In this document: positions 13,771 through 55,919 of the stretch, piece by piece | How positions within the stretch are numbered: the first letter of the stretch is position 1 | How the letters are laid out: every line of letters begins with the position of its first letter | From: an uncultured bacterium | Lineage (GTDB): Bacteria; Actinomycetota; Thermoleophilia; Solirubrobacterales; 70-9 | NCBI GenBank assembly: GCA_963806865.1 | Contig: CAWDYV010000002.1 | Coordinates: 89,194 to 153,193, forward strand | Direction: 5' to 3' | DNA length: 64,000 bases | Notes under the pieces: model-generated | The model's input: the letters and a program-made list of their open reading frames with translations, nothing else | The model's database searches: none | Told to the model about the DNA's origin: nothing | Position numbers and translations under genes: made by a program

Positions 13771-14874
13771 AGCCCGGCTGTCTTTTCGACCATTCCCTCG
13801 ACCCGGAACATGCTTGCATGACGCTCCTTCGCAGCCGCTCCCATTTCCTCGCGCAGGCCTGGATCCAGAAGCAGCTTGGAGACTGCCGCGGATAGAGCTT
13901 GAGAGTTCTCGGGGGGAAAGAGCAGACCCGTCTTGCCGTCGAGCAGAGCCTCGCCGGTTCCACCGACGTTCGACGCGACTTGCGGAACCCCACAGGCCAT
14001 TGCCTCCAGGATCGCGATGGGCAATGCCTCCCACAAGGAGCTGAGGACGAGCACGTCGATAGAGCCGAGCTGGCGCGAAGATGGTTGGCGAAACGGGAAG
14101 AATCCGAACCGATCGCCCAAGCCCTTCTCGAGGGCGCGCTGGCGAAGCTCACCTTCCAGCTCACCGTTTCCGATCACCGCAAGGACGGCTTCGGGACACT
14201 GCTCGAGAATCGCCTTAGCCGCGTCGACGAACACGTGAACGGCCTTCTGCTCGCGAAGCGCGCAGAGCGTGGCCGCCATCGGGCGACCCGCCCGGAATTC
14301 CTCGAGATCTCAAGTCCAGGTCCACGGCGGTTTCGGGCTGCGGGCAGGCGTTGTGGATCACGCGGAGGCGCTCCGGAGGCACGATGTCGTAGTCGATCGC
14401 GATCTCCCGCTCGTCTTCGGCCGCGCACAAGAGGACGTCCGTGACGTCACCGGAAAACCTTTCGATCGTTGCCGATGTCCACGTGTGCAAGCGCGAGTAC
14501 GGCGCCACGAACGGGAAGCATTGAGGGCTGTAGATCTCACGCGCGGGGACGCTCCGGGCGGCTAGGCGGGCGAGGAAGCCGGCCTTCGCATTGTGGGAGT
14601 GCACCAGGTCCAAGTGCTCACGGCGCATGATCAAGATCAGCTGGCGCAGGGCGGTGAGGTCAGCGTTCGGGTGGGAAAACCCCGTTCTGAACGGCAGCCG
14701 CGCCAATGGCACCCCGGCGGCTCGCAGGTCGTCGTAGATCACTGACTCGCGCGGCCCGACCACGAACGGCTGCCAGCCGTGCTCAGGGAGGCCCAAGGCG
14801 AGGAGCCTGACGTTCTCGGCGACGCCGCCGTCAGGTGGATCGAAGACAAGCAGCACGCGTCCCACGAGCGGCAC
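13635..14874 (-). CDS. Glycosyltransferase family 4 (one frame break near 14.29 kb)
   Basis: N-terminal half in ORF 14215..14874 (VLLVFDPPDGGVAENV...DLVHSHNAKAGFLARL). C-terminal half in ORF 13635..14279 (VLSSLWEALPIAILEAMACGVPQVASNVGGTGEALLDGKTGLLF). The 3' end overlaps the convergent GT4 gene and may be shorter. Confidence 0.75.
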
Positions 14875-29485: not shown

Positions 29486-30668
29486 CCGGAGGCCAAAGCT
29501 AGCGAGAGGATGCCCACGGCTCGATCGACATCGCCGGACCCCACGATCAGGGGCGGCAGGAAGCGCAGCATCGCAGGCCCGGGGCAGTTCAGGACCAGGC
29601 CGGCATCGAGGCAGCGGTCCCGCACAGCCGGCGCGTCGAGCTCTCGATCGAGCGTCAGGCCGACCATCAGGCCACGCCCTCGCACCTCGGCTATCCCGTC
29701 GATGGCACTGAGCGCGTCCATCAGGCGCTGACCTTGCTCGCGAACGTTCGCGAGCAGGGCGTCGTCGCCGATCACGTCGAGTGCGGCGAGTGCGGCCGAG
29801 GCCGCGACGGGGCCGCCGCCGAACGTCGTGCCGTGGTCGCCGGGCTCGAAGGCGTCGCCGAGCTCGCGCGCGGTCACGACCGCACCCACCGGCAAGCCGC
29901 CGCCAAGAGCCTTTGCGGCCGTCATCAGGTCGGGGCGCACCGGTAGCTGCTCGAAGGCCCAGAGGCTGCCGGTCCTCCCCATCCCGGCCTGCACCTCGTC
30001 GAAGACGAGCAGCGCGCCTGACTCATCGCACGCTTCGCGCGCCGCCATGAGCACCTCGTCGGCAATCGGGAAGATTCCTGCCTCGCCCTGGATCGGCTCG
30101 ATCATGACGGCGGCGGTGTCCGCGCTCACCGCTGCTCGAAAGCGCGTCGGCGTCGTCGCGCGGCACCGCGTCAAAGCCATCTGGCAGCGGGCCAAACCTG
30201 CCCTCGTCGGCAAGCCTGGGCGTCGCTGCGAGCGCGCCGAGCGTGCGGCCGTGGAAGCCGCCGTCGAGGCTCACGATGCGCGGGGTCTCGACGCCGCGCG
30301 CGTGTGCATGCTTGCGGGCCAGCTTGATCGCGCACTTCGGACGCCTCGGCGCCGGAGTTCGAGAGGAAGACCTTGCCGCCGAGCGAGGAGTCCGAGATGC
30401 GCTCGGCCAAGCGAAGGGCAGGCTCGGAGAGGAAGAGGTTCGAAGAGCCGTTGAAGCGGGCCGCTTGCTCGGTGATCGCGGCGACGATCCGCGGGTGGCA
30501 GTGGCCCGCGTTGTGGACCGAGAGCCCGGCGAAGAAGTCGAGGTACTCCTTGCCGTCCGAATCCCAGAGGCGCGCGCCCTCTCCGCGCACGAACTCGACG
30601 CCCGCGCGCAGGTAGGTGGGCATCGTGTAGCGCGACTCGAGGTCGCGAAGCTCGTCGACGTCGCGTCA
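29482..30668 (-). CDS. argD: Acetylornithine aminotransferase (class-III PLP enzyme), frame-disrupted
   Basis: YTMPTYLRAGVEFVRGEGARLWDSDGKEYLDFFAGLSVHNAGHCHP; SNSGAEA..AIKLARKHA; GGFHGRTLGALAATP; AAVMIEPIQGEAGI...LVFDEVQAGMGRTGSLWAFE...PDLMTAAKALGGGLPVGA. At least 3 frame changes. Located in the arg operon. Confidence 0.85.
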
Positions 30669-37358: not shown

Positions 37359-38474
37359 TCAGAACTGCCCCAGGAAGCGCGCGTCGTTCTCGTAGAACAT
37401 GCGCAGGTCGGGGATGCCGTGCTTGAGGAAGGCGATCCGCTCGATCCCCATGCCGAAGGCGAAGCCCTGGACGCGCTCGGGGTCGTAGCCGTGCTCGGAG
37501 ACGAAGCCGAAGACGTTCGGGTCGACCATGCCCGCGCCGAGGATCTCGATCCAGCCGGTGCCCTTGCAGACGCCGTCGCGCTCGCCGCTGGGCAGCGTGC
37601 CCGAGCCGCCGCAGCGAAAGCAGGAGACGTCCACCTGCACGCTCGGCTCGGTGAACGGGAAGAAGTCGGGCTTGAGGCGGGTCTCGCGCTCCTCGCCGAA
37701 GAGCGCCCGCGCGACCTCCTGAAGCGTGCCCGCGAGGTCGGCGAGCGTGATGTCCTCGGCCACGGCGAGGCCCTCGACCTGCGAGAACATCGGCAGGTGC
37801 GTCGCGTCCATCGTGTCGCGGCGATAGACGGTGCCCGGCACGATCACGAAGAGCGGCGGCTCGATACGTCTCCATCGCGCGGACCTGGTTGGGCGAGGTG
37901 TGGGTGCGAAGCAGGACGTCGCGCGGGCCGGGCGGCAGGCCGTCCTGGCCGACGACGCCGTCGGCGAGCGAGGACGGGATCGACGTAGAAGGTGTCCTGC
38001 ACCATCCGCGCCGGGTGGCCCGGCGGATGGTTGAGCGCGGTGAAGTTGTAGAAGTCGTGCTCGATCTCGGGGCCGTCCATGACGCGATAGCCGAGGCCGA
38101 CGAAGATGTCCTCGATCTCGCGGCGGGTGCGGGTGATCGGATGGATGTGGCCGACGCGCACGGGCGGCGTGCCGGGCAGCGTGACGTCGATCGCGTCCGG
38201 CGCGAGACGCGCGTCGAGCTCGCCGGACTCGAGCTCGCTGCTTGCGGGCGTCGAGCGCCGCCTCGAGCTCCTTGCGCGCCCTGTTCGCGCCCGAGCCGAC
38301 CGGGCCGCGCTCCTCCGCGGGCAGGTCGGCGATGCCGCGCAGGATCGAGGTCAGCTCGGACTTGCGGCCCAGGTAGCGGACGCGGAGCTCCTCGAGCGCG
38401 GCGGAATCGGGCGCCGCGGCGATCGCGCCAGCGCCCTCGGTCCTCAGCTCTTCGATTCGATCGACTGCGCTCAT
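37359..38474 (-). CDS. pheS: Phenylalanine--tRNA ligase alpha subunit, frame-disrupted in the middle
   Basis: [35 protein letters not shown]; [41 protein letters not shown]; [27 protein letters not shown]...[15 protein letters not shown]...[16 protein letters not shown]...[35 protein letters not shown]. Confidence 0.9.
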
Positions 38475-39251
38475 GGTGATTCCTCGCCGAGTTCGACCCT
38501 ATCCGGCTCAAAGCGATGGCCGCCGCGGCCGCGACGCCCAGGGACTCGACGGCGTCGGGGCGCATCGGAATGGTCCACGTTGCGTCGGTCGCGTCGATGA
38601 CCTCCTGCGGGCAGGCCGTCGCGCTCGGAGCCGAGGCAGATGGTCTCGCGCGTCCGCGTGCGGGCTCCGGAGCGCCTCCGTGGGCAACCAAGGAGACGCG
38701 AGGGCGCAGGCGTCTCCTCGAGGTCGCAGCGCGCTGATGGGCACGGTGAAGATCGCGCCCATCGAGGCGCGGACCGCCTTGGGGCCGTACGGGTCGGCGC
38801 ACTCGGGCCCCAGCGCGACCCAGGCGTCGGCGAGCGCCCCGGCGCTGCGGACGATGCTCCCCACGTTCCCGGGATCCCCGACGCCGTGGAGATACACGCA
38901 AAGCGCCCCCTCCCCAGGCAAACGTCCCACGCTAGTGCCCCTATAGGGGCACGTTGTTGGACGTTTTGCCTCGGGGAGGGGCCATATGGCGATCGCGCGG
39001 GTGCCTGAGCCCAGGGTCGAGACCGCGTCGAGGAGCTCGGCGGCGACTTCGTCGCCGCCCACGCCCTCGCCCTCGCGCGTGAGGAGTAGCGACCGGCTCG
39101 TAGCCCGGCGGAGCGACCTGCTTCCAGCAGGTCTTCGCCCTCGGTGACGAACAGGCCCTCGCGCTCGCGGTGCTTGCGCTCGGCGAGCTTTCGCACCAGC
39201 TTCAGCTTCTCGTTGTCTTTGCTTGTGATCGTCGATCGAAAGTGCGTGCAT
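38471..39251 (-). CDS. TrmH/SpoU-family RNA 2'-O-methyltransferase, frame-disrupted, carrying an in-frame palindromic insert
   Basis: [37 protein letters not shown]; [18 protein letters not shown]; [56 protein letters not shown]; LGSERDGLP...[23 protein letters not shown]. The stop overlaps the pheS ATG (ATGA). Confidence 0.75.
38912..38976. repeat. Palindromic element, copy A (CCCCTATAGGGG-core subfamily), inside the TrmH-like coding sequence
   Basis: ccccaggcaaacgtcccacgctagtgcccctataggggcacgttgttggacgttttgcctcgggg. Imperfect ~65-bp palindrome centred at 38943/38944, with arms AAACGTCC..AC / GT..GGACGTTT. Confidence 0.8.
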
Positions 39252-44641: not shown

Positions 44642-44701
44642 TCACGTGACGAGAATGATGATGATGATGATCAGGAGCAGGGTGCCGAGTCCGATGTACA
44701 T
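44642..44701 (-). CDS. 19-codon hydrophobic mini-ORF, copy 1 (downstream copy): MYIGLGTLLLIIIIIILVT
   Basis: ATG 44701-44699 is preceded by aacacAGGAGatcgc (SD, 5-nt spacer). The stop is TGA at 44644-44642. Six consecutive Ile codons (ATC x5, ATT). Confidence 0.55.
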   Translation of the reverse strand: MYIGLGTLLLIIIIIILVT

Positions 44702-44716
44702 GCGATCTCCTGTGTT

Positions 44717-44776
44717 CTAGGTGACGAGAATGATGATGATGATGATCAGGAGCAGGGCTCCGAGTCCGATGTACAT
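44717..44776 (-). CDS. 19-codon hydrophobic mini-ORF, copy 2 (upstream copy): MYIGLGALLLIIIIIILVT
   Basis: ATG 44776-44774 is preceded by aaGGAAGGAGagcac. The stop is TAG at 44719-44717. It differs from copy 1 by one conservative replacement (Thr/Ala), two synonymous changes and the stop codon. Confidence 0.55.
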   Translation of the reverse strand: MYIGLGALLLIIIIIILVT

Positions 44777-44871
44777 GTGCTCTCCTTCCTTGGACTGAGC
44801 GGGATGCGCTCATCCTTACCCCTTCGGCGGACGCTCAAGCGCATCCGATTGGCAGCCGCGCCTCGAAGCGT

Positions 44872-45335: not shown

Positions 45336-45408
45336 TGGGCACTACTGGGCTCGAACCAGTGACCTCCGCCTTGTCGAGGCGGCGCTCTCCCAACTGAGCT
45401 AAGCGCCC
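45336..45408 (-). tRNA. tRNA-Val (anticodon GAC)
   Basis: Minus strand: GGGCGCT-TA-GCTC-AGTTGGGA-GAGC-G-CCGCC-TCGACAA-GGCGG-AGGTC-ACTGG-TTCGAGC-CCAGT-AGTGCCC-A. Full cloverleaf of 73 nt with no encoded CCA. The anticodon loop has C instead of the usual U at position 33. Confidence 0.85.
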
Positions 45409-46243: not shown

Positions 46244-46303
46244 GGGCGAAACGTCCCAATTGGCCTCGTATAGAGGGTCGCGTGGGACGTTGGTGCCTGG
46301 GGC
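46244..46303. repeat. Palindromic element, copy B (CTCTATA-core subfamily), between convergent SDR and phosphoesterase genes
   Basis: ggggcgaaacgtcccaattggcctcgtatagagggtcgcgtgggacgttggtgcctgggg. Arms AACGTCCCA / TGGGACGTT. Starts 2 nt after the SDR stop. Confidence 0.8.
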
Positions 46304-50075: not shown

Positions 50076-50136
50076 ACGAGGTCAAACGTCCGACGTGGCC
50101 CTCTATGCGAGGCCAATTGGGACGTTTGCATCGCCG
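50076..50136. repeat. Palindromic element, copy C (same subfamily as B, opposite orientation), between convergent GNAT and ABC ATPase genes
   Basis: gacgaggtcaaacgtccgacgtggccctctatgcgaggccaattgggacgtttgcatcgcc. The stretch CCCTCTAT(G/A)CGAGGCCAATTGGGACGTTT is nearly identical to the reverse complement of copy B. Confidence 0.8.
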
Positions 50137-54714: not shown

Positions 54715-55919
54715 TCAGCTCGCGCTCGAAGCGCCTCCATGTAGCGCTCGGCAACCATCGCGTCGAAGGCGTGGACGTCGCCCTCGTCGGCCGAGTAGCG
54801 CCCGGCGACGTAGCCGCGCGCCCGAACGCCCTTCTGCGTCAGCTCGCAGACGCGCCAGTCCTCGCGGTTCACCTGGTCCCAGAAGTCGATCGCGTCGGAG
54901 GGGTCGAAGCCGTCGACCTCGATCGTCTCGGGCTCGAAGTACCACTCGCAGATCACGTCGGTGCGGTCGACCGCGCGCGGCCACAGGGTGTGGAGCATCA
55001 CGTAGTCGGGGTGGAGCGAGATGAGCGCGTTCGGGAAAGAGCGCGAAGTAGTAGACGGACGCGTGCTCGGCCGGGTCGAGCCCGGTGATCGGCGGGCGCT
55101 GCGCGTGGCCGTTCCGGCCCATCGTCTCGGCGCCCTCGTTCAGCGCCATCGAGCCGCCGCACCAGGCGCCCGGCCCGGACTGCGAGTTGCCGCTCCGGTA
55201 GTCGGAGAGCGCGTTCAGCTCCGGGTGGACGCCGGGGCAGTGGAGGCACTCGTTGTAGTTCTCGGCGATCGCCTTCCAGTTCGCCTCGACCTCGTACGTC
55301 GCGCGAGCCGGCGCGCCGCAGGTCCGAGAGCCGCCAGCCGGCGAGGCGCGTCGCCGAGGTCGCCGACGTGCTCGACCGGGATCGGGCGCCTCGCCGCTCA
55401 GATCGCCGAAGAGGAGGCCCGAGACGACGGCGCTTCTGACCTCGATCAGGCCAAAGCACGAGCGGTCGAAGTCCTCGACCGCGTCCATGTGCGGCGCGGC
55501 GGCGAGGCTGCCGTCGAGCCCGTACGACCAGGCGTGGTACGGGCACTGGATGCGGCGGCGGACCTGGCCCTCGGCCTCCTCGACCAGGCGCGAGCCGCGG
55601 TGGCGGCAGGTGTTGAGGAAGACGCGCGGCGACGCCGTCCTCGCCGGCGAGCGCGAAGACGCTGGTCTCGCCGATCTCGCGCATCAGGTAGCGCCCGGCT
55701 CGGCGACCAGCGGAGGCGTGGCCCAGGCAGACCCAGCCGCCGTAGAGATGCTCCGATCTCCCAGGCGAGGACGGCGGGATCGCAGAACGCGGCGGGCGGG
55801 AGCATCGTCGCCCGCGCGACGGGCTTCAGCGTCAGCGCGACCTCGCGCGGATCAAGCGGCAGCGGGCCGTCAGGACGAAACGTCCGACACCCCCTATAGG
55901 GGTGCTGGACGTTGGCCAC
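54715..55919 (-). CDS. Rieske [2Fe-2S] aromatic-ring-hydroxylating-type oxygenase alpha subunit (GbcA/Stc2-like), frame-disrupted
   Basis: LPPAAFCDPAVLAWE; Rieske motif NTCRHRGSRL...CPYHAWSYGLDG; catalytic domain NWKAIAENYNECLHCPGVHPEL...; ALISLHPDYVMLHTLWP...WDQVNREDWRVCE. Both ends are uncertain. Element D covers the first 15 codons if ATG 55919 is used. Confidence 0.8.
55874..55917. repeat. Palindromic element, copy D (CCCCTATAGGGG-core subfamily), in the Rieske / acyl-CoA dehydrogenase divergent region
   Basis: gacgaaacgtccgacaccccctataggggtgctggacgttggcc. Arms AACGTCCGAC / GCTGGACGTT around CACCCCCTATAGGGGTG. Confidence 0.8.

Follow-up and report, generated by a model that had tools for sequence, protein, structure and literature searches.

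REP elements carry a GTAG-like head that is recognized by a RAYT (Y1) transposase, and the MITEs of cyanobacteria fuse sporadically in frame with host ORFs. Rickettsia palindromic elements (RPEs; Ogata et al. 2000) are, according to PMC10969869, palindromic repeats of ∼100 to 150 bp that lie in frame in housekeeping genes while leaving the ORF open, nearly half of their copies being genic. In-frame fusion with host ORFs occurs occasionally among the ERIC/RU elements of enterobacteria (PMC2759123), and QMITE1 of Coxiella is likewise sporadically intragenic (PMC5896051). In-frame palindromic repeats in housekeeping genes are textbook knowledge for Rickettsia; for high-GC, free-living Actinomycetota none were found described. 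The searchable full-text literature, a scope that does not by itself prove novelty, yielded no description of such in-frame repeats in Thermoleophilia or of the repeat family reported below (family 1), in agreement with the original prediction, which knew of no such case in GC-rich actinobacteria.

The window (the whole 64,000-nt stretch of DNA that was analyzed, from an uncultured Solirubrobacterales bacterium) contains a palindromic repeat, copy A, inside a methyltransferase gene. We consider it probable that copy A derives from a REP/MITE-like repeat that entered a permissive interdomain linker without breaking the frame and has since persisted there as a disordered loop, at times duplicated and at times decayed. 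The locus comprises the following features:

38471..39251, minus strand: host gene for a SpoU/TrmH-family RNA 2'-O-methyltransferase, probably of the RlmR/YsgA type, between rplT (upstream) and pheS/pheT (Pfam, Foldseek, alignment to L204)
38905..38982, minus strand: full hairpin within the methyltransferase gene, made up of the family core and an outer stem, CCCCTCCCC/GGGGAGGGG (codons PLP and GEG)
38915..38971, no strand assigned: copy A, core of the dispersed palindromic family (covariance model R1, 45.6 bits, E 5e-12), read as a 16-residue peptide on the minus strand
38898..38981, minus strand: 28 linker codons between ...IAIW and VYLHGVGDP, where the ancestral linker has 12 codons
39273..39291, minus strand: canonical intrinsic terminator from the terminator scan, a hairpin with a T-run (GGGCGCCCCAGAGGCGCCC then TTTTTGTTGG), between rplT and the methyltransferase gene

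The host is probably best named an RlmR/YsgA-type rRNA methyltransferase, judging from its domains and the structures closest to its model. Pfam analysis of the stitched protein recovers PF00588 (E 3.5e-22) and PF22435 (E 5.6e-8), with MRM3-like_sub_bind at residues 12 to 59 and SpoU_methylase at residues 117 to 245. The insert, at residues ∼91 to 116, falls between the two, exactly where the original prediction had put it, between the N-terminal substrate-binding domain and the SpoU domain. The top Foldseek matches are RlmR (9muj, also 9h1k), 2i6d, a putative TrmH-family methyltransferase of Porphyromonas gingivalis, AviRb (1x7p) and YsgA (7qiu); those to RlmR, AviRb and YsgA have probability 1.0. 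Like RlmR of T. thermophilus (9muj) and YsgA of B. subtilis (7qiu), the host combines an L30e-like N-terminal domain with a SPOUT domain (TM 0.75 to 0.8), and the solved structures (249 to 267 residues) match the model end to end, but identity is only ∼25% and the substrate of the host is putative. Thermus RlmR modifies Um2552 of 23S rRNA (structures 9muj and 9h1k). The host protein scores under the NCBIfam equivalog cut-offs for RlmB and TsnR. The earlier label 'TrmH-like' is thus right at the family level and not beyond it, the closest structures being those of the 23S rRNA 2'-O-methyltransferases RlmR and YsgA and not of the tRNA enzyme TrmH. The order rplT-methyltransferase-pheS recurs in every clade relative's locus with gene calls, and ysgA presumably adjoins pheS as the host gene does. 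Since the terminator lies directly past rplT, trmH-pheST may form a separate transcription unit.

Sequence quality bears on any claim about reading frame at this locus. The host gene shifts frame at least five times in the window, as do thrS, rplT, pheS, pheT, argC, argJ and argD, and between positions 29500 and 42700 (thrS to argD) a single-base indel occurs every ∼80 to 300 nt relative to close relatives. Because essential genes cannot all be pseudogenes, these frame breaks are read as assembly errors, and the window has the appearance of a long-read assembly before polishing. Among the matches listed for the L35 protein, the nearest relative, L207, has 92% DNA identity and is fragmented likewise. 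Against L204, an intact close relative from a JGI assembly whose flanks are ∼90% identical to the window, the 780 nt of the host gene show ∼10 isolated one-base indels, all outside copy A. In the base-by-base alignment, the 360 nt from 39092 to 38733, which contain copy A, agree in frame with the intact L204 gene, and the length differences within copy A sum to −9 nt, a multiple of three. The single continuous frame that had been proposed therefore holds across copy A and fails for the gene as a whole, with its five or more frame switches; the worry that the local frame might prove wrong once indels were corrected is not borne out by the intact relative. At an indel rate of ∼1%, the window's own copy A could hide compensating sequencing errors, and the center of its insert reads in the register PYRG where the orthologs have P-I/M-G.

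Within this frame the palindrome is strong. An inverted-repeat search over the 64-kb window returns overlapping arms at 38905-38945 and 38942-38982, and folding of positions 38900-38990 as mRNA gives −59.1 kcal/mol, versus −35.3 ± 4.0 kcal/mol for dinucleotide shuffles, none of 200 of which folds as well (z −5.9). The exact center, GTGCCCCTATAGGGGCAC, occurs once in the window and in none of 100 shuffles. Frame 1 of the minus-strand translation reproduces to the letter the peptide quoted by the earlier reader, who had placed the palindrome at ∼38912-38976; it spans 38905-38982, and its in-frame position is confirmed. The outer stem PLP/GEG of the genic copy is kept in orthologs.

Copy A is a member of a dispersed family whose plan, AAACGTCC-N11-CTATAG-N11-GGACGTTT, emerges from an alignment of 26 copies taken from the window, its relatives and soil metagenome contigs, which is also the source of covariance model R1. 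The core measures 42 to 45 nt, with terminal inverted repeats AAACGTCC/GGACGTTT of 8 nt, a conserved CTATAG loop and, on each side, ∼11 variable nucleotides, those on one side pairing with those on the other. Of the eight arm base pairs, five are the same in every one of the 26 copies and two more in 25 of 26; every copy has a different interior. Pairing is found in 79% of the cells versus 71% in shuffles, and the covariation score of 0.275 compares with 0.145 in shuffles (0 of 500 reach 0.275) and with 0.06 to 0.12 in slid controls. The arms and loop that copy A has in common with intergenic copies thus bear out its description as a palindromic element. In the window, R1 detects four copies (E about 5e-12 to 1e-13) and nothing else above noise, the three besides copy A being:

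46244..46297, no strand assigned: copy B (R1, 50.5 bits), between the convergent 3' ends of a short-chain dehydrogenase gene (plus strand) and a phosphoesterase-like gene (minus strand)
50079..50132, no strand assigned: copy C, inverse of B (R1, 49.9 bits), between the stops of an acetyltransferase-like gene (plus strand) and an ABC ATPase gene (minus strand)
55873..55919, no strand assigned: copy D, shorter, with a 35-nt core (R1, 48.8 bits), in a divergent-gene spacer or at the extreme 5' end of a minus-strand gene

Copies B and C are 91% complementary, and B, C and D all lie outside recognizable coding sequence; convergent-gene 3' ends also flank copies in the relatives L002 and L205. R1 finds matches in every close clade relative tested and none in the 1.5 Mb covered from 80 other genomes of Solirubrobacterales, Thermoleophilaceae and Gaiellales. 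Rfam contains no relevant family, either at gathering thresholds across the whole window or at E≤10 around copy A; its sole match at the gathering threshold in the window is a tRNA gene (45336-45408, minus strand). The element leaves two of the three frames on each strand free of stops. Among ∼21 non-linker copies examined, one is a clear in-frame genic case (pheT of L002), and none of 14 other metagenome copies lies within an ORF with coding-like GC3. The metagenome pattern scan itself is mostly noise, ∼16 of its 120 matches being true members and the others repeats that share the 16 specified bases. Taken together, family 1 is a small REP/MITE-like repeat family of a soil Solirubrobacterales subgroup, apparently undescribed.

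Two further repeats were met along the way. The pattern scan returned an unrelated repeat, AAACGTCCAGCATTACATTTGCTGGAAGTTTGCTGGACGTTT, present at most three times per contig on low-GC (∼43%) contigs that include L094, L119, L125, L126, L131 and L161. The window also carries a tandem 66-nt direct repeat (44646-44711 and 44721-44786, 94% identical), each unit of which could encode, on the minus strand, a tiny and very hydrophobic MYIGLGTLLLIIIIIILVT-like peptide.

Comparison with more distant relatives establishes the ancestral state of the linker, delimited as the segment from ...[AG]x[WYF] to VYLHGVGDP. Orthologous loci of 80 GTDB species, among the matches listed, include 62 with an uninterrupted gene, and in 58 of these 62 other Thermoleophilia species the linker has 12 to 13 residues with the motif xQRWxxxxGPxC. 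As the short linker is conserved elsewhere, the 28 residues of the window represent an insertion of ∼16 codons. Excision of the element had been expected to leave a normal short linker, and the orthologs without an insert have precisely that, with no hairpin signal: basal linkers fold like shuffles (mean z −0.16, n=25). The idea that a hairpin already present in the ancestral linker drew insertions is rejected on this measure. Among the 115 closest homologs, linker length falls into several classes, including:

12 residues, 21 of 115: basal linker
27 residues, 16 of 115: typical family-1 insert, xKRPxxxxx[IM][GA]xxxGR[LFS]x
24 to 25 residues, 25 of 115: a different insert
48 to 52 residues, 4 of 115: two tandem family-1 units

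Structurally, the insert is predicted to be a disordered loop between two confidently folded domains. An AlphaFold2 model of the ortholog P0001, which is 85% identical to the stitched protein of the window, was built from a 114-sequence alignment and has a mean pLDDT of 87.4 and a pTM of 0.85, with 187 of 252 residues at 90 or above. In ten-residue blocks both domains mostly exceed 90, while the insert, residues 91 to 109, stays below 50 and lies between strands 80 to 85 (...IAIW) and 114 to 118 (CVYLH). The insert, which the original prediction had proposed to examine as a possible surface loop, thus appears in the model as a low-confidence loop between well-folded domains.

Nearly all of the window's clade carries the insert in frame, and the family-1 carriers of this clade form one group in a neighbor-joining tree calculated with the linker columns removed. 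Within the clade, secondary losses or remnants are seen in P0030, P0047 and P0051/52; the linker of P0030 reads PIPDGRIDADQAIC, and its DNA retains GGACGAAT. Two other carriers, P0056 and P0049 (DNA L217 and L218), are nested in clades that otherwise have the basal linker. Their family-1 arms are clear, the junctions differ and the PLP/GEG outer stem is missing, L218 being without the inner stem as well. Tree position and junctions together make these independent gains, so that family 1 has been gained at least three times independently in a linker of 36 bp. Tandem in-frame copies, giving linkers of 48 to 52 residues, occur in P0021, P0024, P0035 and P0036 (DNA example L002:10260-10376); that these four proteins belong to different subclades suggests that doubling arose more than once. 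The insertion is accordingly clade-wide and old, not particular to the genome of the window, and has undergone tandem duplication and decay.

Family 1 is not the sole palindrome at this site. In a large sister clade of Solirubrobacterales, the same linker carries a second palindrome, GCAGTTGT(C/T)CCCGCATACCGGG(G/A)ACAACTGC (GCAGTTGTCCCCGCATACCGGGGACAACTGC), which encodes the peptide TQLSPHTGNN and variants and is inserted at two junctions, after P[LIV]P or after PLRWA. Its linker copies are:

L008:5576-5598
L013:10271-10293
L014:6630-6652
L030:10271-10293
L031:4077-4099

One inverse copy lies outside the linker (L016:4720-4742). A further locus, L219 (P0070), holds at ∼630-690 a perfect palindrome with a 12-bp stem, CGTGGCGGCTAT-CA-ATAGCCGCCACG, in a linker of 13 residues; this palindrome is possibly a remnant, possibly an element of a third kind. 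Outside the methyltransferase gene, L002 carries a 57-nt family-1 copy in frame in pheT (13914-13967), read as NVPRTTEEGVASDVR (NVP...DVR). This copy is absent from L001, L204, L205, L206 and the window, and the filled/empty pair gives a 57-nt insertion with no evident direct repeat between flanks that have diverged.

The hairpin has been maintained through this history. Sixteen trmH-linker copies, fourteen from the clade of the window plus L217 and L218, were drawn from Illumina, JGI, NCBI, Logan and long-read assemblies. All sixteen are in frame and form hairpins of ∼−22 to −39 kcal/mol when the core is folded with short flanks; the fifteen folded with the outer stem reach −36 to −64 kcal/mol. 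Across eight orthologous copies, 12 of 20 pairs have changed on both sides, and 76% of cells pair versus 30 to 42% with a slid partner. In L205, L208 and L214 both arms have been altered together, from AACGTCC/GGACGTT to AGCGTGC/GCACGCT. Interior identity between relatives is 50 to 73% versus a third-codon identity of 60 to 80% in the flanks; being near or below the latter, it implies that the interior drifts approximately neutrally yet remains self-complementary. Cassette-like replacement of the interior is not claimed, as neutral-rate change in place with compensation suffices. Sense and antisense strands differ in stability by a mean of 0.0 ± 3.9 kcal/mol, with 16 versus 23 G-U pairs, and a structure specific to the mRNA is rejected for want of strand asymmetry. 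This lack of strand bias argues that the symmetry is kept at the DNA level or on both strands. The terminator scan flags none of the four copies in the window, whose stems are flanked by TTT/AAA alone, with no T-run.

Such maintenance raises the question of whether the hairpin is functional and selected, modulating trmH-pheST expression as a partial terminator, through processing or stability, or as an interdomain translational pause, and recruited repeatedly for that purpose. We judge this explanation unlikely. Compensatory change preserves pairing even where the family arm sequence is lost, yet neither stability nor G-U pairs favor the sense strand. Intergenic copies sit between convergent genes in a terminator-like placement, but a T-run is missing, no copy is flagged by the terminator scan, and rplT and the methyltransferase gene are already separated by a canonical terminator. 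The extra outer stem PLP/GEG is specific to genic copies, and genic copies are rare elsewhere, both of which would fit recruitment at this site, as would the three or more independent family-1 gains and the arrival of a different palindrome family in the same 36 bp, together with the other palindrome in the 13-residue linker of L219. Most Thermoleophilia, however, lack the element altogether; P0030, P0047 and P0051/52 have lost or degraded it, and L218 does without the inner stem.

Selection on the peptide itself, with a basic KRP...GR loop aiding the binding of rRNA by the methyltransferase and the palindromy of the DNA being incidental, is highly improbable. The insert does conserve basic residues (K/R-R-P ... 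G-R), in a host protein that binds RNA, but these residues are the translated arms, which are equally invariant in intergenic copies, and the peptide between them is unconstrained. Moreover, the compensatory changes occur at the DNA level, the copy in pheT uses a different reading frame (NVP...DVR), and the model shows no ordered structure. An artefact, in which indel errors create the in-frame reading or the palindrome is an assembly chimera, would draw on the one single-base indel per ∼80 to 300 nt in the essential genes of the window and on the departure of the PYRG register from the P-I/M-G of the orthologs, but is the least credible of all, with the in-frame element at the same codon position in fourteen independent assemblies (MEGAHIT/SPAdes-style short-read, JGI, NCBI, Logan) and both flanks of copy A sharing their frame with the intact L204 gene.

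In-frame insertion into a permissive linker thus remains the preferred reading; it builds on the membership of copy A in family 1, on the state of the linker before insertion, on retention of the frame, on the loop position in the model and on the upkeep of the hairpin, and it largely bears out the interpretation given in the original prediction. In an ancestor of the clade, a family-1 copy landed in the 12 codons linking the RNA-binding N-terminal domain of an RlmR/YsgA-type enzyme to its catalytic SPOUT domain. The length it added is a multiple of three, and the gene would have stayed open. The gene would now encode an extra peptide of ∼15 to 16 residues (KRP...GR[LFS]), probably a disordered surface loop that the enzyme tolerates. 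The element presumably is, or was, mobile. What keeps it symmetrical may act on the DNA, either as selection for a hairpin or cruciform or as template-switch correction from arm to arm, and the repeated landings may reflect a linker that is permissive and perhaps also favored as a target. Among the Pfam-labelled genes in ∼250 kb of clade sequence no transposase was found, nor was a RAYT seen. A model with the arms as target site and a mobile interior was also considered and set aside, no AACGTCC-N(0-17)-GGACGTT being present in 266 kb of clade sequence.

Three features sit uneasily with the simplest form of in-frame insertion. The different interior in each copy is unusual and counts against recent transposition. 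A perfect hairpin that persists across relatives differing at 20 to 40% of third codon positions is more than simple neutrality predicts. Likewise, simple tolerance would not predict as many as three or more family-1 gains and the arrival of a second family within the same 36 bp; at other places, insertion in frame is rare. Hairpin DNA may land in this linker specifically and repeatedly, or be selected for there, a tentative proposal suggested by these gains, the second family, a third small palindrome within 36 bp and the long maintenance, and one that we rate as rather doubtful. If true, it would point to a structure- or sequence-targeted insertion mechanism so far undescribed in Actinomycetota, or to a role of the hairpin in the expression or folding of trmH-pheST.

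A single protein site here offers a natural series: empty, filled, doubled, decayed and filled by a second family. With this series one can test how selfish hairpin DNA gets into ORFs and how long it stays, whether selection or template switching during replication preserves the symmetry of the palindrome, and how such inserts give rise to new protein loops. At a practical level, the element accounts for differences in length among these methyltransferases, and such inserts are to be expected in gene calling and alignment.

Set against known systems, family 1 resembles the RPEs, as described in PMC10969869, in being a palindromic dispersed repeat that lies in frame in a housekeeping gene and whose peptide occupies a fold-compatible loop. 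RPE hosts are AT-rich obligate intracellular alphaproteobacteria, whereas family 1 resides in high-GC, free-living Thermoleophilia (Solirubrobacterales MAGs); RPEs encode a conserved peptide, whereas the interior of family 1 is hypervariable; and nearly half of RPEs are genic, versus ∼1 in 20 family-1 copies outside the linker. With 42 to 57 nt family 1 is also smaller and probably unrelated to the RPEs in sequence, and its size, host and much lower genic fraction set it apart from them. The Rickettsia analogy drawn in the original prediction consequently applies to the phenomenon, an in-frame insert that forms a loop, and not to its frequency, given one in-frame case among ∼21 non-linker copies. 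With MITEs, ERIC/RU and QMITE1, family 1 shares terminal inverted repeats and occasional in-frame fusion, but it is much shorter and belongs to none of these families. It is like the REP/BIME elements of proteobacteria in consisting of short, GC-rich, imperfect palindromes that are mostly extragenic and often at convergent 3' ends; REP/BIME have many copies per genome, and family 1 has four in 64 kb, three of them outside recognizable coding sequence. Unlike REP/BIME, it has no GTAG head and ends in AAACGTCC/GGACGTTT, its copies are single and not in BIME-like clusters (the in-frame tandem pairs in the linker excepted), and their interiors all differ. Family 1 therefore behaves partly like RPEs and partly like REPs, its size and placement being closer to those of REPs.
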